Shown here in pieces: positions 464-42,934 of a stretch of 64,000 nt of DNA. A program made the position numbers and the translations under genes. The stretch is from Heterodontus francisci (lineage: Eukaryota), in NCBI RefSeq assembly GCF_036365525.1, contig NC_090409.1:31444437-31508436 (forward strand), read 5' to 3'. The first letter of the stretch is position 1. Each line of letters opens with the position of its first letter. The notes beneath the pieces are model-generated. The model searched no databases, was not told where the DNA came from, and worked only from the letters and a program-made list of their open reading frames with translations.

Positions 464-581
464 ATCCACCGGAAGTGACGATTACAGGATATGACGGAAA
501 CTGGCACCTCAACAGACGCAAGGTGAACCTCAGGTGCATTGTTGAGGCCAATCCTCCAGCAACAAGCTATCGCTGGACAAT
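464..581 (+). CDS. Nectin/PVR-like Ig receptor: exon for the first half of the membrane-proximal Ig domain (gene begins upstream of the window)
   Basis: ttttcctggttag|AT ... ACA AT|gtatgt. Translates (Y)PPEVTITGYDGNWHLNRRKVNLRCIVEANPPATSYRWTM, matching the nectin domain-3 pattern YxPEVxIxGYDxNWY...LxCxAxANPP...YxW. Confidence 0.9.
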
Positions 582-1044: not shown

Positions 1045-1214
1045 GACCACAGGACCAGTACCTGAAAATGCCCGAGTGGAAGGAAATCATCTATTTATAC
1101 GACAAGTCGATTACTCTGTTAATGGGACGTGGGTCTGTGAAGCAACAAACGCCGTTGGAAAAGGGAAGGGTGAAATTGCAGTTGTAGTGAGGGAAATGGA
1201 CGCACTCAGCGCAG
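1045..1214 (+). CDS. Nectin/PVR-like receptor: second half of the Ig domain
   Basis: ctattcatctag|G ... GCA G|gtacac. TTGPVPENARVEGNHLFIRQVDYSVNGTWVCEATNAVGKGKGEIAVVVREMDALSA contains the F-strand GTWxCEATNxxG motif. Phase is compatible with the previous exon. Confidence 0.9.
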
Positions 1215-1375: not shown

Positions 1376-1489
1376 GCGAGTCCTTTGGATCCACCGTGGT
1401 GTACATTGTCATCGGAACAGTCATTGGGGTCTTGTTCATTGCTGTCTTACTATCCGTTGTGATAGTCAAAAAAAGACGGACAATCGATG
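1376..1489 (+). CDS. Nectin/PVR-like receptor: transmembrane exon
   Basis: tttatag|GC ... GAT G|gtaagc. GESFGSTVVYIVIGTVIGVLFIAVLLSVVIVKKRRTID is a hydrophobic helix followed by a basic stop-transfer sequence. Confidence 0.9.
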
Positions 1490-2890: not shown

Positions 2891-2925
2891 ACACTAAACC
2901 AGAAGCGAAGCCTTCTCCACAGCAG
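2891..2925 (+). CDS. Nectin/PVR-like receptor: 35-nt cytoplasmic exon
   Basis: Pyrimidine tract ccttatctttccttaagcag|AC ... CAG|gtatg. Encodes DTKPEAKPSPQQ. Phase 1 in, phase 0 out. Confidence 0.7.
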
Positions 2926-4795: not shown

Positions 4796-4942
4796 CAGAG
4801 AAGCCAAATTACTGTGTTCGCGACTCTCAACCTCAACGTGTTGGATACTGTTAATTCTTCAACGAGAGAGAATCATGAAAGAGAAGCAACAATAAACGCG
4901 GATGTTAATATTAACCAGACTCAGACCTCCTCGGTGAAATAA
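4796..4942 (+). CDS. Nectin/PVR-like receptor: cytoplasmic (putative last) exon
   Basis: catactttctcag|CAG (NAGNAG acceptor), phase 0. QRSQITVFATLNLNVLDTVNSSTRENHEREATINADVNINQTQTSSVK*. Confidence 0.65.
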   Translation, partial: QRSQITVFATLNLNVLDTVNSSTRENHEREATINADVNINQTQTSSVK

Positions 4943-5394
4943 TAGTTCACTCGCTAATGTTTCTCGATAATCGGATATGTACCAACGCAAGCTCGATTTT
5001 GTTATAACTACTCAGTAACTAGGCACAGTCAAAATGTTAAAACAAACTCTTCATTCCTGTCGTGTTGGCTAAACTGCACTGGACTCAAATGCAACCTTTT
5101 TTTCTGAGCATATATAAACCTGTATCTGAACATCATGCCCCAGACTGGTGTGTGTGAGTGCCTCGTTCTTATATTTGGTGACTGTTCATAGTCCTTTGTT
5201 GTCGTTTTTCATTCATTTACCGATCAGAAAAAAAAACAGACGTGCATTTCTATGGCGCCTCTCACGATCACAGGATGCCTCAAAGGGCTTTACAGCCAAT
5301 GACATACTTTTGAAGTGTCTTCGCTGTTGCTGTCGGAAACGCAGCTGCCAATTTGCACGCAACAACAACAACTTATAGTTATATAGCACCTGCC

Positions 5395-16560: not shown

Positions 16561-17932
16561 TGTGTTCATTGTGTCCGAATCATAATAGGTATATCCTGGC
16601 TGGACAAAATCACAAATGTGGCGGTTCTCTCAAAGGCAGAGTGTGTTGCCTCCCTGTTATGAACAATTTCTTAGTATAATTATTTACCTGGTATACCGAT
16701 GACTGCAAGAACAGCATAGTAAAGAGCATACATCAGACCACTTTCTGGATCATGCATTTTTCTTTCAGTTGTGATGGCCCCTGTCAATGTTGGAATGACA
16801 GGCTCTGAAACGTGCTCATGAGTCATTTGAAGACTCTTTAATATATCCTTGAGTGCAGCCTCGTGTGACACAACTAACAGGGACATTAGCTACAGTTATT
16901 TGAACAAACAAACTATGATAGGTGTTGTCATGTTTTATTCAGTAATGTAACCTGATACGTATATTTCAACCAAAATTAACATTTAAGTATCCATACATGT
17001 ATTTATCATAACCATGTATATGTTTGCATATATGTTTCTACATATGTGTGCCTGTGTGCGTATGTGAGACAGAGAGAGAGAATATCAGACAACTTCCAGT
17101 GCCAAGTAACAAGCTGTTTGGACATGTGCATTATGCATTCGAATGAGATAGTCCACGTCTGGGATGAAGCTGAGCTCAGGGTTAAGCAGAACGTCCAAGG
17201 TTACACACATTTAGCCTTCGCTTAAAGACGATTGTATTGGAGTCACGGTAAAATGCATCCATTGAATCTGAGATTTGTTTTACAAATTCATATACACTCA
17301 ATTACCAAAATCATAATGATGGTTTTAATTGTAGCATGATAGTGTCGTGCAATTATTATTTTACATTAACTTGATTGAAAAGTGGACAATATCGCAATGG
17401 TTCATTATTCGACTATTATATGCAGAAAGAGGTAAGCAAGCATCAAATAGAGCTTGGAGAATTAAAAAGCGACAGCGTATATTATGTTCTTTTTAATAAA
17501 TTCAAACCGTGACAAAACACTGTTTCTTTAAATTTATTTGCATGGATTGAGGGTGGAATTACTGCTGCGATGGAGACTCTACCCCAAATGCTTGTTGAAA
17601 GTTAGCGCAATCAAGACCTTTTACTTTCATTTCAACCAAGTCGCTAAAATGTAAGAGCACATCTGCTGGTCTACTTGAATATTTACTAATCTAAATTGTA
17701 GAAGTGACTGTGATGTATGTAAGGATATCATGTTTAATTTCAGTTTTTTCTTTCTAAATTTGAGGATTGCTTGCTTTTTATGCTATTTATTGACTTGCTT
17801 CGACAGACATCAGAGTAATATCATCAAATATCACACAGCACTGTGACAAGGCGGGGTAGAGAGCACAGCATCTCAAAATTCCAACTTGAACCTACTCCTT
17901 ATCCTTTATTACCTCAATGCAGGCACTGTGCA

Positions 17933-29203: not shown

Positions 29204-29599
29204 GGATATATCATTCATGCTTGCGGAGGTTTGGGATCTTGATAGTTGCGTACAAAATCGTTTCATTGTGATCTGGATTCGTGGATTGCAGGGCGCCAAG
29301 ACCGGCGTATGTACACTGATTGTCATTCTGTAACAGAAGGTTACAAGTGTTAGTTTGTAGAGCTATTGCAGGAATGCAGCTCAACGCGCGGCGTGAGTGT
29401 AATGCCTGCAGCGGCGCAAACCGAAGGTCAATGAGATGAGCGTTGTTGAGATGCAAGAAATAAGGATCTTGCCATTATACATGCGGATGAGGCGCCAAGG
29501 TTGTCGTGTTGGACTGAAATGGATAGCACTTTCAAAACGTCGGCACAGACATGACGGGCCGAACGGCCTCATTCTGCTCTGAAAAGTTCTATGGTTTCT

Positions 29600-34135: not shown

Positions 34136-34609
34136 TGTAACCTTACTTTTACTATTTATTTTCTTGTTGTTTTAAAGTTTCATGAACTAACTGGATAATT
34201 AGAACTCAATTAACATTCTAGTATAGTGTTGTTGAGATACCTTCACAGAAGAAGGCTCCAGGTGGAGAAAAAAACTGAACAGGGTTCTATGCCTATTCCT
34301 TAAACACACTACAAACTGTACCCAGATTACCGGAGACTGAAAAATGTCTGTTTTGAATAAGGGAAAGCATGGTCAGTAATATAATCGGCAAAATGTTAAA
34401 CAATCGATTCAAGCGTCACCTGACATTGCAATATAATTGGTGTTGGAGGATACAAGTCATTGTTTAGGGGACTGCTATCTCTTACATTCCGCACCAGTTC
34501 CGGCAGATGCTCACTGTTCTCATGGGGTGATCATTTTAAAACGAGGTTTTGATACACGGATTTTTTGATGCTACAGCTACATATTTTGCAATTAACAATC
34601 GGCACATAC

Positions 34610-34703
34610 GTTTGATTCTTCACCATGATCACGACTGAAATTAAAACAAGAAGTCCAGAAGCACCTCCCAGGATCATGAAGACGATTTTCCAGGACGTTA
34701 TTC
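34610..34703 (-). CDS. Siglec/MAG-like receptor: transmembrane exon
   Basis: tattatag|GA ... CAA AC|gtatgt. GITSWKIVFMILGGASGLLVLISVVIMVKNQT has no charged residue within the helix. Confidence 0.88.
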
Positions 34704-35355
34704 CTATAATATTGGCAAAACAATACTGTACATCAGGATATTTGTGGTTAAAACAGCAATAGTGTAAGAAAGAAACTTTCCTTTATGATGGAAGGACAAA
34801 GCTAAACACAAATTAATGACACATCTTGCCCAATCTTGTTGGTCCTTCCATAGAAGCATTTGCTTCCTGTGTTCTACCCTGGTCCAACAGAATTGAAGAT
34901 ACCCTTCCTATTTTGGTGTGTTGACCTCAAATTGAATGTCGTCTTTCTATACTAAGGAGGTTCTGAGCATGCTCGAACTAAGAGTGTGTGTGCAAAGAGA
35001 TAAATTAGTTTGCCATCATGTTGTGAAAGGAACTGGGATTGCTAAAGGATTTATCTGAATTCAGAAGGAATGATTCTCTCCTAAGATTACTAACTAATTT
35101 TGTTGCTGACATCATTCCATTTTATCCTGACAAACATAAATGCAGCAAGTTTCAGAATAATGACATTTAACATGGATAATGCACACCTCACCGTTCAGTT
35201 GGGGATGGAACGTGTTCCTGACACTATTTTATGATATATTATGTCCTGACCTGCCGACCCATATTTGCTGACACCAACACCGTGCAGTTAGCAAATGATC
35301 AGATATGTAGCAACCCCTTTATAGTATTTAAATGGCAAATAGATTGAGAATGTAC

Positions 35356-35643
35356 CATCAGAGTGGAGCTGGTATCTGCCGACACAATCACCGTGCTCAT
35401 TTGCTGCAACACACGAGATCACGTTTCCAATTCCAGTTGGGTGCGCCAGTCTCAGGGAGCTCTGCACATGGGAACTGTTCACTTCCCAAGAAATCACTTC
35501 CACCTCTGACCTGTTCCCAGTGATGACGCTGTCATTGACTTTCCAAGTGATGTTTGCCGGTGGATTGGCACTGATGGTGCACGTGCAATTTGTCCAATTC
35601 TCAGAGCTGATGCAGGTCGGGCCTCCGACTATTGTGGGTTTAT
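35356..35643 (-). CDS. Siglec/MAG-like receptor: membrane-proximal Ig exon
   Basis: tttttttttag|AT ... GAT G|gtacat, 288 nt, phase 1-1. YKPTIVGGPTCISSENWTNCTCTISANPPANITW...VISCVAANEHG shows the C..CxC..NP pattern of the last MAG/Siglec domain. Confidence 0.9.
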
Positions 35644-35763
35644 CTAAAAAAAAACAGTCTCTTAATTACGAAGTTATTATGTCCAACAGGGGAAGCATCC
35701 AGGTACAATTAATTTAATTGTGGAACTAACCGTAATGTTTCTGGAAGATTTTACTTTAATATA

Positions 35764-36104
35764 TTTAGAGATACAGCACTGAAACAGGCCCTTCGGCCCA
35801 CCGAGTCTGTGCCAACCATCAACCACCCATTTTTTATACTAATCCTACTAATTCCATATTCCTACCACATCCCCACCTGTCCCTATATTTCCCTACCACC
35901 TACCTATACTAGGGGCAATTTATAAAGGCCAATTTACCTATCAACCTGCAAGTCTTTGGCATGTGGGAGGAAACCGGAGCACCCGGAGGAAACCCACGCA
36001 GACACAGGGAGAACTTGCAAACTCCACACAGGCAGGACCCGGAATTGAACCCGGGTCGCTGGAGCTGTGAGGCTGCGGTGCTAACCACTGCGCCACTGTG
36101 CCGC
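35764..36104 (-). mobile_element. HE1-type V-SINE (intronic)
   Basis: Reverse complement of 21002-21344. Confidence 0.93.
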
Positions 36105-36875
36105 CCATATGGAACACTTTATGTTGCACCCGTTGAGAGCTTATTATATTTTCACTTATAACAGGTTAGCACGTTACATAACAACTCCATACTGAATTCA
36201 AAGTGTGTTCTATCCGAACGTTTTTTCCCCCTGCTGATCCTGTGGGGTTTTCCTCAGACTAAGGAAGCTCAGAGTGGCAATTAAGTATAAGACGGTCAAA
36301 ACTGTGCCTCACATTCCAGTGGTTTCAAAGGTCAGGCCAATATTAATTTCTTAACTAGGTGACTTCTTCCATGGTAAAGGACGTTGACATTTTCCTACTG
36401 GAGATGACCATGCAACACGTCGACGTTTTAAAGGATCGAGTCTCTGAATCGGACATTGCCAGCTCAACATTAGTACTATTACAGAGATTGGGTTATCATC
36501 ATTTTGTCAAATGTTGTTTTGGGTGGAATATTTGTGATCATCGGGTGCTGCATGTATGTCCTAAGGATAGAAATTTGTTTAATCCAGGATCCAACGTTAA
36601 TTATGAACAATTATATATGAAGTGACTATACTTCTCTCCGAACCAGAACAGTGCCAACATCTGGATTTATATTTCACTGCAACATCTTCAACTCCTGTCA
36701 CCCTGAGCGTGATGGCCATATTACTTTCCATTAATAGGGCCAGTGAGTTTTGTTTTGGGCGAAATGTGCACGGATCTGACGGCACTGCCCCAAACTCATG
36801 CCATATTGGTTCTTGGCATTTGAAATTTTTATCATGAATTCGTGAGATGAAATTTCGAAATTCATGCATTCTTAC

Positions 36876-37129
36876 AGTACAGAAATCTGTGTGGTTCTAT
36901 TTGCAGTACCCGTGTTATTTTCAGCCAGACACCAATACTCATCATCATCTTCAGAATATGCGGTTGTGGAATGTCTGCAATAGTTCATCAAGGGAAGATC
37001 TGCCAATCCCTTTACCAATATTCGCCCTTGTAAACAGCAGAGGATTCCACCAGGTTGTGAAGTATAAGATTAATGATCTGCCCTGTAACTCTACTATTGA
37101 GGAATTGATGGTAAGATATTCTAGTCCAT
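36876..37129 (-). pseudogene. Decayed Ig-domain pseudo-exon inside the Siglec-like gene
   Basis: gtgtcag|AT, then (Y)GLEYLTINSSIVELQGRSLILYF..NP..., a frameshift, and SEDDDEYWCLAENNTGTANRTTQISV|gtaag. It is 254 nt, has an in-frame TGA at 36953-36951, and lacks the first Cys. Confidence 0.75.
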
Positions 37130-37626
37130 CTGACACATGCACTAATGCAAAATGTGAATGTCACATGAGCATGATTTTGCTCTAAATGGAAACATTATAT
37201 TGGGAAAGAAGATTACAAACGTATATGTTTTACTGCCAGCCGATTAAAGTTGCATAAGATTTTTTTTCCTCATTTAAAATTTAGTCTCCTCTTTCACTGT
37301 TGTCTGCTTGGTTGTTTATGCACGTTGAGTCGTGTCTCATTCAGAACAATTTTGACGCCTAACCAGGATCTGATATCAAAGCAGAAACCAGTTTTAAAAA
37401 CCTTACTCTGCATGGCGTTTTTATTTGGCTTCATGCTGAATAAACTCAGCATGTCACTGATTGGGAGTCGGCTAAGTGCCATTTCCATTAATTGATTCTC
37501 CGTGTTAGTACTCACATGAAAGAAGCCCATGTTTTCTCAATGCGTTGCATGATGGCATTCAAAACACCTGTTAAATTGTGTGTAATGGAAGTACAAATCT
37601 TTATTGCATTTAGACAAAACACTTAC

Positions 37627-37938
37627 ATTTAATCTCCAAGGCAAGCGTCTGTGGAGAAGACGTTTGGAAGTCACCAATTATAATTGTGCATCCCAGAATT
37701 GATCCCTGATGAGCAGATGATGGAATCAATGTGAGCACGGATGAAACTGTCTGAGACCCTGAAATGTCATTGATAATTTCTGCTCCATCTTTAGTATCCC
37801 ATGCAAGAGGAAGGGACATGTTGTCATGACTCCATTTCACTTGCAGCTTGCTATTCGGGCAGTAGTCGGTGACTGAACAGGTCAGTCGTGCTTTGCGTCC
37901 AGCAACCATCGCCCGAAACCCTGAAATCCGTGGTTTTT
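37627..37938 (-). CDS. Siglec/MAG-like receptor: C2-set domain 2 exon
   Basis: ctcctgcag|AA ... AAA T|gtaagt, 312 nt. EKPRISGFRAMVAGRKARLTCSVTDYCP...W...SSVLTLIPSSAHQGSILGC shows the Siglec D2 signature LxCSxxxxCP ... SxLTxxP...HxGxxLxC. Confidence 0.92.
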
Positions 37939-38350
37939 CTGCAGGAGCAGGAGAAGACTCGCGTTAGATTCATTTCAATTTGAGAGCAGGAAACAAATCT
38001 GTTACTTTTAAATTGGAGAACGAGCCTTTGAAAAGTGTATTGTATGTGTTTTGCCAGCTGTGCATGGCAAGTTAGTTCTCTATTCTGTATTATTCCTTGG
38101 AGTTATAAAGTAGTTTAGTGCCTCACTGTGCAATACATGACCTTGCTTAATTAATCATCAGTCGTTTTATCACCTACGTTATTCAAATCATCACAAAACC
38201 ATTTCCATGTTTTGAATATGTATCATTGCATCTTTTAACAGTATCCCTGCATCCTATGTGTCAACAGCTCATTATAATAGTTACCTAATTTGTACATATA
38301 ATGATTCACATTGAAAGAATGGACAGAAATGTACAGAAGGAAGAACTCAC

Positions 38351-38722
38351 CTGAAACAGAAAGAACGACTCGAGAATGTTCAGAGTGCTGGTCTGCAGTT
38401 TGCCCGAATGTCAAGATGAATTGATATGTGCCCTCATCGCTCTTTCTGATACGCTTTATCAGGAGGGAGCATTGCCTTTCTCCAAGGTTGCCGGTGAACA
38501 CAACTCTCCCGCTGTAGTTGGCGTGCTGCTTGTGTGGATCTTTCGAATTATAGATCACTGAGGCACTGGGGTTACCAACACTGGAGCTCATCTTTATCCA
38601 AATACCGTTTGGGTAGCTGTTATTGATTACATTATCAAAGGTGCACCGGATATCTGCACATGAACCAGCCACCGCCGACATAGATTCTGTCAGCACCACA
38701 GAGCATTTTGCTGTAAAAACAA
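38351..38722 (-). CDS. Siglec/MAG-like receptor: V-set exon
   Basis: ttttgtcag|TT ... TCA G|gtgagt, 372 nt. SAVAGSCADIRCTF...GIW...YSGRVVFTGNLGERQCSLLIKRIRKSDEGTYQF carries the Siglec-specific Cys pattern (CxxxxC and E-strand CSL). Confidence 0.93.
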
Positions 38723-39329
38723 CTGACAAAACAAAACAAAAAACCTGCTTTAACGTAGTTGTCAATTGACGAATAATCGCCCATCACAATAACAATTTAG
38801 ACAACAATTAAGACCTTTTCAAAAATCAAGTAAACTACCAATTAAATAGCAATAGCACTTGCAGAAAAGTTAAATTGAATACCTATTTTGTGTGAGACTT
38901 ATAAATAAATATCATACATATTTAATATAAACCAAAACTAAATACAAATGCACTAATAAACAGCAGAATGTCCAATAAAATGCCCAAGTATAAATTACAT
39001 TATTGATCGCAATATACATTACACATCTATTCATTCTCCCTTGTATTTTCAATAGTTATGAGTTAAAATGTTATTAAAAGTGCGTGATAATACTCATATA
39101 TTTCATACTAATAATATAATTTGCAATGTACAATATTTAAATATGATCTTAATAGGCAGCCAAACGCAACAATGCACCGACAAATAATGCATTAACCAGA
39201 CACGTAGTTCCTATTTCCAATTATTCTAACATCAATCATCGAAAATCATTTCTATTAGGTACTGTTCTTAACTATTCCGGAAAAATGCAATCAACTGCTG
39301 TGTACATTGTAAAAAAAAAAGAAATGTAC

Positions 39330-39366
39330 CTGTTGTCAATGTCATGAGAAAAACAAACGTCATCAT
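39330..39366 (-). CDS. Siglec/MAG-like receptor: signal-peptide exon
   Basis: aacATGATG ... ACA G|gtacat. Encodes MMTFVFLMTLTT; 37 nt, phase 1. Confidence 0.75.
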
Positions 39367-41022
39367 GTTTGGACACAACTGCCGATTTCACTCTCAAGAT
39401 GAAGAACACTTAAGAAAATTCAAGTTTCTGCATTCTTCGTGTCAGTCACATTTTGGTTTTATTTGCTATTCAGCATCGGACAATCTAGGTAGGAAGTATT
39501 CGGTGTCGATGGATCTGTAGGGACAGTGGGTCTACAGTAAGGTTCCTTGGTGATGTAGACAGCTTGCACACGGGCTGCCTGTGACTGGCTATTAATGAAT
39601 ATGTTTACTGTATATGTAACAGTTGCTAAAGAATACTTACTACCGCAACAACATAGATCTGTCTCCCTCAAACACAAACGTCAAATGTATTGCTATTTAT
39701 GCAATAATATTTGGCATCTGTATCAAGACCTACGCTGGCTGACTGTCATTTCACACATATTTAACTTGCCAGCAGCTTATACGAGGTGTATGTTGGAGAC
39801 TTGTGACTAAACAGTTTGGTTGCTGCAGTCTGGAGAAGTGCGGTTTCGGCACCTTCCTTAATTACTGCCCTCATACTCATCTGTGACATCAGAGGTAAGA
39901 GCTGTTTCAGAGTAAACCGTTAGAGGCTGTGGTTGACAGCTTTCTGCCGAATTCATTTAACTCTTTACATTCACAGTCAAGAAATTAACCAAAATTCTGC
40001 TCAACTTGTTGAAGTACTTTGCGTTTCAAATTTCGGTATGAGGTTTGGGATGTTTGAAATGTCTTTGGAGTTTTGTCCCAAACACAAATAGTGCTGGGAA
40101 ATACATGGAAAAAGATGAGGGAACCAACGGGTCCAACCAAACTGATCAGTTTGGCAAAATCCTGGACACACAGTACTTGTCATTTGTGGTTAATTGTGTT
40201 CACTAGCTCGGAGACAGAAATAGATTGAAGCGATTGCCGGCGCAGACTAAGAAATTCTTCCAGCAAATTCCTATTGTCGCTCAAAGACGGAGAGCAGAAC
40301 ACATCTCTCCGATGCATCCCCACTGCAGAAAGTCGTGAATTCGTGGGATCAGGTCACGTGGTTTAGCGTACTTCTCATCTGCAACTATCTTTATGCAATG
40401 ATTATTATTTTATAACAAAAATATGCATATCACATTGGTACAGTAGAATGCGGTTTTGTGAGGCTGGGACTCAAATGGTGTGTGTGAGAAAGTAAAAGAT
40501 TTCAAAAAACGTTTTATTCAACTGCTTATCTGAAACTTGTCAAATAAAAATCTAAATAATTTTGCCAGGCTAATTTCCATCCCTGCCCTCCTCGCCTTGA
40601 ATGCTTTAACTATTATTCATTGGGGTTTGAAAACTGTCGAATACCTTCTGTATTGTGCTATCAATCATCTCGCTACGTCAATAGCAGGCAGTCTAGCCTT
40701 TCATAAACTGTGACTGCTGTTAGCAATAATTTCTCAACATCAATTATGCCCAATCGTCCTTCCAAAATGTGAAGGAGTAAGGCAGCACCTTAACCCCTTG
40801 TGAATTCCGGCAGTAATTATACAGAGACATTTACGTGCAGCGATGCTATTAACTTGCAAAGAAAATTTCATCAAAATTTTAACCCCAACCTGTTAGCATT
40901 CTGAAAACTAATGGCAATATGTTGGAAAGTGTATGGGATTGCAAATTAAATATTTCAACCAACAAAAATGAAGTAATCTGTGCCGTGTCTGAGGTGGGCG
41001 GAGTTATATCAAACTCACTGCT

Positions 41023-41053
<31 letters not shown>

Positions 41054-42367
41054 CTGTGTTTTCAGTTCGATATAATTGCTCCAGTGTCACGTGTCTTCAT
41101 GGCGGATATATCCATCACCTATCCCAGTAATGAGAACATTCCAATTGTGTACATAATCCTTTATTAACAACTGGATTTGATTGCGAGAATAAACTGCAGT
41201 TCCACTTCTGTATATCCGTCGTTAGCCTGTAATGCAAGCACTGGGAATGGAGTTAATCCCGGACGGAACTCAGTAGAATGCCGACCAGAAAATGGAATCA
41301 AAGCTGTTGCCCTCTTACTATTTGTTCAAGGTTTATATATATATATATATATATTGCTGAATTACTTGCATAATGTGCAGTTCATACAGTCACAACGTGG
41401 CCTATATGTCTGTGGAATCACTCTGGTCGTTGTATGTAGATCAGTTGCAATTGCATTAGAAATATTACCTCTGGTTCTTATTTTTCTTGTGTAGAAAGTG
41501 ATCGGAGAAAGACTGGTATGACTCCATGGCCTCCAACAACCATAATCATTTTCCTTTGTGCCTGGTATGACTCCAGTCAGTAGAGCGGATTCGCCCTACT
41601 TTCCATGATCCACCCACTCCCATTGACTTCACTTCTTTTTGGGCTCCTTGTGGCCACATTTGGTCAAATGCAGCCTAAACATCAAGGCCAGTCACTCTCA
41701 TCTCACTGTTCTATGAAACTGAACCCACAAGTTCTTCCACATCCTTCCACATTACCAAGCTATTCAGCATTCAAACTAAAATTTACCACTTCACACTCTT
41801 TCGAAATTGAGTCAGGACTTGTTCGGATAAAATGGATGTAGGGCTGATTTTACTGAGTTGCTTCAACTTAGGAAGCAATGGGACAAAGGGGATAGAATAA
41901 CACTGAGTGAAAACATTCCAGATCAATTGTTCATTCCAGCAACCGCCCAAGTTTCATTTAATTTGCTGTGATTGGGAACACTGTTTGTTTTCTGTATAAG
42001 ACGTACAGCCAACAACGGCAGTTTTACTTTTGGCCAATGAGTTGAAAGTAAATCCCTATGTGAACATTTAAAAATAGGTTGCAAAAGTGGTTGAAGGCAA
42101 CTAGAATAAAGGGATTTGGAAAGTGAGCAGGAGCATATGATTAGGAGTGATGCTCAGGTGAAGTATGAACAGTAACAGAGACTGGCAGGGCTGAAAGACC
42201 TGTTTTGCCGCTGTAATTTCTGGACATTTCTGTGTTCAGGATCTGAACCACTGCATCTCTTATCAGTACGCCTGCAACCTCCAAATATTTGTCAACTTGG
42301 CACATAAATTGATTCATGTTAAAACACAGGTATTACAATAAACACCAAAAACAAAGGGAAAACTCAC

Positions 42368-42644
42368 CTGAAACAGAAAGATAAACTTGAATCCCTGAGT
42401 GTAGTATTTCTTTGCATAACAGCACAAGCACAAAGGGATTTCCTAATATTGCCTGCATGGATCTTTCGAATTATAGATAATGGAGACACCGGAAGTGCAG
42501 GAGCAGGGCCTTGCTTCAACCACATTCCATTTGGCTTGGCCTCATCGCTTAGATGATCAAATGCACACCGTATCTCTGCACATGAACCCAACACCGCCCA
42601 CACATCTTTTGCCATCACAGCAGAACAGGGAGCACCCGAAACAA
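42368..42644 (-). pseudogene. Siglec-like V-set pseudo-exon of a tandem paralog
   Basis: ttttcctcag|TT VSGAPCSAVMAKDVWAVLGSCAEIRCAFD...PNGMWLK, then frame shifts through IIYNSKDP, NIRKS and FVLV...VYLSVS-G|gtgagt. Has internal deletions relative to 38351-38722. Confidence 0.88.
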
Positions 42645-42934
42645 CTGAGGAAAATGTTAAACGCTCATTACTTCGTCATTCTAAATATAGTGCAACATTT
42701 TAAGCATCCATTGATGTATTTGTTAATTGGAAAGTAATCGGCCATCACAATAGCAGTTTAAATATCTGATAAGTACTTTCCAAAATCAAGCAAAATTCTA
42801 ATTATATTACAATCATTAGTGCTACTGAGAGGTCCATTGCATTATGTATTCGTTAGGTGTTCTAGGAACTAATAACATACACATTTAATACTCATCGCGA
42901 AGCCAAATACATATTCACTAAGGAGCAGGTGACA

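Follow-up and report, generated by a model that had tools for sequence, protein, structure and literature searches.

Comparative evidence that a conserved elasmobranch nectin-family gene has lost both its ITIM and ITSM tyrosines

We analysed a window of 64,000 nucleotides from the horn shark (Heterodontus francisci) genome (C39:31444437-31508436), which contains the last exons of a nectin-family gene, here called gene B. Comparison with a neighbouring paralogue, gene A, and with orthologues from other species indicates that this conserved elasmobranch gene has lost both tyrosines of an ITIM and ITSM tail. We lean towards the explanation that gene B encodes an intact, spliced, single-copy three-Ig protein of the nectin family that, having lost these tyrosines, is predicted not to recruit SHP-1/2; its conserved outer domains would probably give it a role in adhesion or as a ligand, without braking the cell.

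The gene B protein (P0001, XP_067874536.1) is already modelled in RefSeq, under the name nectin-1-like isoform X2 and with no comment on its tail. It is built of a signal peptide, V, C and C domains, a single TM segment and a tail, and it gave Pfam V-set and C2-set matches. Its exons are listed in Table 1 together with other features. The 2925-to-4796 junction was found in contigs of all four runs (X1 and X3 from a first organism, X5 and X8 from a second, three studies in all), where the contig end before 4793 corresponds to exon 2891-2925. The last letter of that exon differs in the contigs of the second organism (X5, X8), and the Phe and Asn codons described below show no difference there. 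One contig each of runs X1 and X7, the latter from the second organism, joins 464-581, 1045-1212, 1374-1488, a gap of 33 letters consistent with the small cytoplasmic exon, and 4793-5141/5144; the long X1 contig has 0 differences to the window. Runs of the X1-X8 type are marked only 'RNA?' or '?' in their records, none as RNA, yet their contigs lack introns, which shows them to be spliced transcripts. A preliminary description of the sequence had proposed that the exon at 4796 is spliced to the upstream exons and that the Ig and TM exons are intact, and both proposals hold, given the junction, the open frames and the spliced contigs.

Gene B is single-copy: a search of the genome with its tail matched itself alone (1 match among 2 candidates), as did a protein search with the tail, which matched P0001 (1 of 8 candidates), and its relatives were reached via the V domain and via the tail of paralogue A. 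The same last exon is present in all four horn shark RefSeq isoforms, and tblastn with the shark nectin-2 tail against the window and the 200 kb upstream of it gave no match that would indicate an alternative last exon of afadin type. Tandem NAGNAG acceptors lie at 2888-2891 and 4796-4799, at both cytoplasmic exons (the contigs used 4796), and explain RefSeq isoforms X1-X4, which are one residue apart at each acceptor. Among the other features of the window, a Siglec/MAG-like gene is convergent with gene B, and a short hydrophobic frame resembles what we take to be the first exon of a shark GPR139-like receptor expansion.

Table 1. Features of gene B and of its surroundings in the horn shark genome. 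Positions given without a contig name are those of the window.
Feature	Position	Strand	Remark
Gene B, signal exon	C39 ~31437732-31437779	+	5' of the window
Gene B, V exon	C39 ~31440276-31440623	+	5' of the window
Gene B, second Ig exon	C39 ~31442990-31443289	+	5' of the window
Gene B, third Ig (C2-type) domain, first half-exon	465-581	+	joint 581-1045 GT..AG in 4 of 4 runs
Gene B, third Ig domain, second half-exon	1045-1214	+	joint to TM exon in 3 of 4 runs
Gene B, transmembrane exon	1376-1489	+	TM helix without charged residue
Gene B, small cytoplasmic exon, DTKPEAKPSPQQ	2891-2925	+	contig evidence and RefSeq isoforms
Gene B, last coding exon	4796-4942	+	homologous exon in paralogue A, with ITIM+ITSM: C39:31434051-31434164
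Site 1, TV-F-ATL	4811-4828	+	Phe codon TTC 4817-4819 opposite Tyr TAT of A IVYASL
Site 2, TI-N-ADV	4889-4906	+	Asn codon AAC 4895-4897 opposite Tyr TAC of A TVYADV
Gene B, 3' untranslated region	4943-5141	+	at least to 5141; spliced contig of run X1
Short hydrophobic frame MHDPESG…VIGIPG	~16690-16760	-	followed by a likely donor
Possible tail piece of the Siglec/MAG-like gene	near 29250		ILYATI
Siglec/MAG-like gene	~34500-42700	-	two V-type exons, C-type exons, TM exon
Upstream gene, V exon	C39 ~31273261-31273610		PVR-type
Upstream gene, tail exon	C39:31391979-31392095		IVYASL...TIYGVV
Expanded A-type gene cluster	C39:17.9-19.9 Mb, C1191, C1465		ITIM+ITSM tails
Nectin-2-like last exon	C39:36649771-36649947		ends GMYV; 81% identical to Heptranchias P0042

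Read in the plus-strand frame from 4796, the last exon of gene B encodes QRSQITVFATLNLNVLDTVNSSTRENHEREATINADVNINQTQTSSVK followed by a stop. The cytoplasmic tail contains no tyrosine, matches neither (S/I/V/L)xYxx(I/V/L) nor TxYxx(V/I/L), the ITIM/ITSM consensus, and ends in SSVK without the afadin-binding (E/A)xYV. At two sites spaced 26 residues apart (F384 and N410 of P0001), the codons are each one base away from TAC. The preliminary description had already pointed out the exon, the two codons and the absence of the afadin-binding end, and rereading the frame reproduced them. In 20,000 shuffles of the exon, the ghost pattern in a loose form, [STIVL]x[FNHCDS]xx[LVI], occurred twice in 50% and as a pair at 15-35 residue spacing in 28%, and a strict pattern set post hoc occurred twice in 0.01%. 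With its loose form so common among shuffles, the motif pattern was rejected as stand-alone evidence; a motif call made from the window alone is within chance, so that the proof of ghost sites is carried by the paralogue and the orthologues. The horn shark tail ends 8 residues (QTQTSSVK, 4916-4939) beyond the stop of most B orthologues. Paralogue A ends in QS, with which the first two residues of this extension align; the extension may be ancestral or a read-through. Two lamniform B records have a different extension, of 35 residues.

Gene A (P0035) lies directly upstream of gene B on the same strand and has the same V-C-C-TM plan, with its tail about 10 kb 5' of the window. This tail, ...IVYASLDFNV...ERTVYADVKYSQS, contains the motifs IVYASL and TVYADV. 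Alignment of the last exons of A and B as DNA gave a score of 40.0, which was reached in 0 of 1000 shuffles (mean 22.2, maximum 36.5). In the horn shark assembly, 11 A-type tail exons carry tyrosine at site 1 in 11 of 11 and at site 2 in 10 of 11 cases; they amount to 5 distinct sequences, several being identical and some lying on unplaced contigs, and the eleventh shifts frame. The A orthologues of Heptranchias, Stegostoma and Mustelus, few in number and taken from a 50%-cluster search, have both tyrosines (3 of 3). A search with the A V domain returned itself alone (1 of 226 candidates), and the control covers sharks only, no batoid A orthologue having been recovered. The A-type control for tyrosine retention is thus clean, if small.

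The expanded A-type gene cluster includes several identical copies, one tail whose frame shifts downstream of its first motif, and matches to the V exon that contain internal stops. The upstream gene of Table 1 matches the first part of Heptranchias P0036, which reads there as a single V domain, TM and tail, a plan that we take to be TIGIT/PVRIG-like; this single-V gene is a candidate receptor for B. Its TM exon was not located in horn shark. In Stegostoma (P0184 and P0186) and Mustelus (the first half of P0002, and P0194), A-type ectodomains occur with a second, different tail, whose motifs in Stegostoma read …TYTSV…SVYSDL. The Stegostoma A protein and its second-tail partner have near-identical ectodomains (branches of 0.0065 and 0.014 in a quick tree), a likeness that resembles paired receptors held alike by gene conversion. 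RefSeq contains fusions of neighbouring genes in Mustelus P0002 (A and B) and Heptranchias P0036 (upstream gene and A), which confirm that the gene order is conserved, yet hide the members from name searches.

Among 15 orthologues of B, both tyrosines are present in one, a single tyrosine in three and none in 11. The states at site 1/site 2 are Y/Y in the sevengill shark Heptranchias (TVYATL, TVYADI), Y/N in Mustelus, H/Y in two skates, F/N in Heterodontus and two Scyliorhinus, H/N in two lamniforms, F/H in Pristiophorus and Pristis, L/V in Mobula, F/V in two stingrays and L/H in Narcine. Left out of these counts were isoforms, duplicate Logan skate records, Mobula hypostoma (states as in M. 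birostris) and P0027, a cluster member of 48 aa that is unrelated. The three replacements at each site are F, H and L at site 1 and N, H and V at site 2; of these, F, H and N can be reached from a tyrosine codon by changing one base, and L and V take a second step. Mapped on the species tree by parsimony, the tyrosine columns took 6 changes at site 1 and 4 at site 2, compared with an average of 3.5 in the other columns of the exon, and so behave as unconstrained. The B-only parsimony root is F at site 1 and H or Y at site 2 and does not fix a tyrosine; the case for tyrosine as the ancestral state rests on the outgroup, A and the upstream gene, which has it. The comparison indicates that both sites descend from tyrosine-bearing motifs and that release of the ITIM and ITSM tyrosines is clade-wide, reached via several different substitutions and not a horn shark accident. 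The homologues of the TVYATL/TIYADV type that the preliminary description had proposed to look for are found in paralogue A and in the Heptranchias orthologue, and its historical claim of a former inhibitory tail is strongly supported: tyrosine stands at these sites in homologues, and the exon is spliced.

None of the 15 orthologues has an xYV end, and the TM segment is uncharged in all of them. The species examined have open, full-length B frames, the record for Narcine being an isoform without part of the second Ig domain, and the Ig domains share 58-67% mean pairwise identity. Among Heterodontus, Heptranchias and Mustelus, the V domains of B share 62-82% identity and those of A 48-59%. B was recovered in neither orectolobiforms nor holocephalans, which is weak evidence of absence.

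In a tree of 24 ectodomain rows (4 of A, 7 of B), the A and B clades were each supported at 100/100 and grouped as sisters at 90/93, below the tool's star. The pair stands beside a nectin-2/PVR clade at 92/92, and outside it; that clade (94/89, unstarred) includes the sharks' own nectin-2, and both mammalian PVR rows group with horse nectin-2 at 100/100. By this tree, whose deep nodes are unstarred, B would be an orthologue of neither nectin-1, nectin-2 nor PVR. The best solved-structure matches of the B ectodomain were nectin-1 (E 7e-78), nectin-2, PVR and nectin-3. Nectin V domains carry the lock-and-key motifs (V/I)(S/T)Q, AX6G and T(F/Y)P, and at these places the P0001 V domain has VVQ, AVYNPHFG and VFP, AX6G being exact and the other two one residue off. 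Shark nectin-2 with an xYV end is represented by P0042 and P0045, and a horn shark nectin-2-like last exon is given in Table 1. A nectin gene on C22, presumably nectin-1, was a stronger match to the nectin-2 query. Excerpts of PMC7286890 report nectin-1, nectin-3, necl-1 and necl-2 in shark, trace the origin of nectin-2 to tetrapods and that of PVR to placental mammals, and mention no shark nectin with an ITIM.

The flanks of the two motifs (-2 to +3) have changed less than their surroundings. Over the whole tree they show 1.9 changes per column, compared with 3.5 in the other columns of the exon (P=0.0007), and in 14 species, Narcine being left out, their maximum-likelihood site rate was 0.53, compared with 1.48 elsewhere in the tail (P=0.002). 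In the 15 orthologues, Ala+1 and Thr+2 of site 1 and Thr-2 of site 2 are found in 15 of 15, and Leu+3 and Asn+4 of site 1, Asp+2 of site 2 and V/I/L/M at its +3 in 14 of 15. Such near-invariance would be expected if the tail had been repurposed, with the flanks as a tyrosine-independent docking site, a possible but rather unlikely explanation that is compatible with the loss of SHP docking. The best candidate partner would be a SAP/SH2D1A-type adaptor gripping Thr-2 and the hydrophobic +3 of site 2, and a partner in trafficking or scaffolding, binding the invariant ATLN block at site 1, is another candidate. SAP binds non-phosphorylated peptides (excerpts of PMC7337045, PMC3507883, PMC3134462 and PMC3418226; three-pronged mode in the first two), and excerpts of a single-cell study of a cartilaginous fish (PMC11372145) report T cells expressing a sh2d1a-like gene; the main text of that study makes no mention of nectin, TIGIT, CD226 or CD96. 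The SAP consensus as excerpted retains the tyrosine, however (T/S-I-Y-x-x-V/I, PMC3134462; T/SxYxxV/I/L, PMC3418226). Inside wholly tyrosine-less clades, the flanks have 12 changes where 17.1 would be expected, which is not significant (P=0.09; P=0.06 at site 1 and P=0.32 at site 2). P ranged from 0.12 to 0.59 in four tests of single clades that left out Narcine, and in Narcine both motifs have decayed (VVLATV, TEHSET). A tyrosine-free SAP consensus, T/S-x-x-x-x-V/I, is said to have been given by Hwang in 2002. A 10-taxon flank test (site 1 P=0.0007, site 2 P=0.07) was given no weight, as it omits Narcine and covers branches that may have had tyrosine, and at site 1, which lies near the acceptor, a splice-enhancer constraint could mimic protein constraint. 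On these sequences, early tyrosine release with another job for the flanks and late, separate losses before decay both fit, and it is the count inside wholly tyrosine-less clades (P=0.09) that would tell them apart. We think it unlikely that, across sharks and rays, repeated tyrosine-specific losses turned an ITIM+ITSM tail into a phosphorylation-independent docking module such as a constitutive SAP-type site, so that a brake once gated by kinases would now be an adaptor site, always on, of a nectin-family receptor. The most specific candidate for a role of the flanks is a grip of SAP type on Thr-2 and +3 of site 2 that needs no phosphorylation.

B might also be a decoy or dominant-negative twin of A, which binds the A ligand or an A-exploiting pathogen, or pairs in cis, and so blunts inhibition. 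The tandem same-strand arrangement, the common V-C-C-TM plan and the homologous tail agree with this, the repeated loss of tyrosine would be expected from selection against an exploitable brake, and the ITIM-less PZRb isoform, compared with PZR, is an analogy. However, A and B are only 39% identical in the V domain and 50% in the C domains, whereas true paired twins are near-identical outside the cell, as the Stegostoma pair is. In addition, the B V domain is slower than that of A, unlike a pathogen-chased decoy, and the tyrosine columns are not clearly faster than the spacer. We consider a twin of this kind improbable, and the 'decoy' form named in the preliminary description is not supported by the V-domain comparison. 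Activating partners in paired-receptor systems usually lack ITIMs, as B does, and the decayed Narcine tail would suit a gene becoming a pseudogene, but both ideas were already disfavoured and appear very improbable given that a charged TM residue is found in 0 of 15 orthologues, that there is no ITAM-like tyrosine, that full-length frames, the Ig domain identity noted above and spliced contigs in two organisms persist, and that the ectodomain is far from near-identity to inhibitory A.

A ligand or adhesion role for B fits better than a decoy or activating twin because the gene is single-copy, its V domain is slower and shares little identity with that of A, and its TM segment is uncharged. The course of events that we propose would begin with sister genes A and B and a common tail exon, both tyrosines being found in A-type genes and sevengill B, and would continue with the loss of at least one tyrosine in 14 of 15 B orthologues (both in 11, with three replacements per site). 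SH2 docking of SHP-1/2 on ITIM-type motifs requires phosphotyrosine, and a tyrosine-free tail would be unable to dock SHP-1/2. After the duplication, A, which is fast-evolving and has expanded, would have retained the inhibitory job, and selection on B would have kept the ectodomain and released the tyrosines. CD155 and CD112 engage TIGIT and PVRIG, and the B V domain may engage a conserved host partner in trans, possibly a neighbouring ITIM-bearing relative. In PZR, the phosphotyrosines of the motifs VIYAQL and VVYADI are described as essential for SHP-2 recruitment (excerpts of PMC7290418). The preliminary description had suggested a signalling-null form, which is likely but unproven: phosphotyrosine-dependent SHP docking would be lost with the tail tyrosines, and the flanks are conserved over the whole tree, unlike the prediction for a fully inert tail. 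B may signal in the 4 of 15 species with one or both tyrosines. The sister support of A and B, below the tool's star, also counts against our preferred explanation.

Searches of open-access titles and abstract starts on shark nectin ITIM, cartilaginous fish TIGIT, degenerate ITIM and ITIM paired-receptor evolution did not return gene B among the matches listed. The locus suggests a nectin-2-related shark family with an ITIM tail, apparently gained independently of mammalian PVR, one member of which then shed its tyrosines. Its 15 orthologues form a natural series of one motif pair (Y/Y, Y/N, H/Y, F/N, F/H, L/V) that bears on the role of a tandem ITIM/ITSM tail with one or no tyrosine and on a tyrosine-free job of the flanks. 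Motif scans and the 'nectin-1-like' label misread gene B in both directions.

Compared with known systems, B shares its fold and top ectodomain score with classical nectin-1, the source of its RefSeq label, but lacks the afadin-binding PDZ end of nectins 1-4. The gene A family, also 'nectin-1-like' in RefSeq (P0035 and relatives), is its sister clade, with an adjacent gene and a homologous last exon; A has both tyrosines, is multi-copy in horn shark and has a faster V domain, whereas B is single-copy and tyrosine-poor. PVR/CD155 (Necl-5), of the nectin-2 lineage, has a V-C-C ectodomain in common with B and, like the gene B lineage, an ITIM-type tail without a PDZ end (excerpts of PMC7286890). 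In contrast to PVR, the B tail has two motifs, from which the tyrosines were lost, and the tree does not support orthology between the two. PZR has a single P0-like Ig domain, and its likeness to B is one of motif resemblance alone. Its motifs, as given in excerpts of PMC7290418, closely match IVYASL/TVYADV of A and TVYATL/TVYADI of sevengill B. PZR drops its ITIMs via a separate isoform, whereas B is a duplicate gene that has dropped the tyrosine residues alone.
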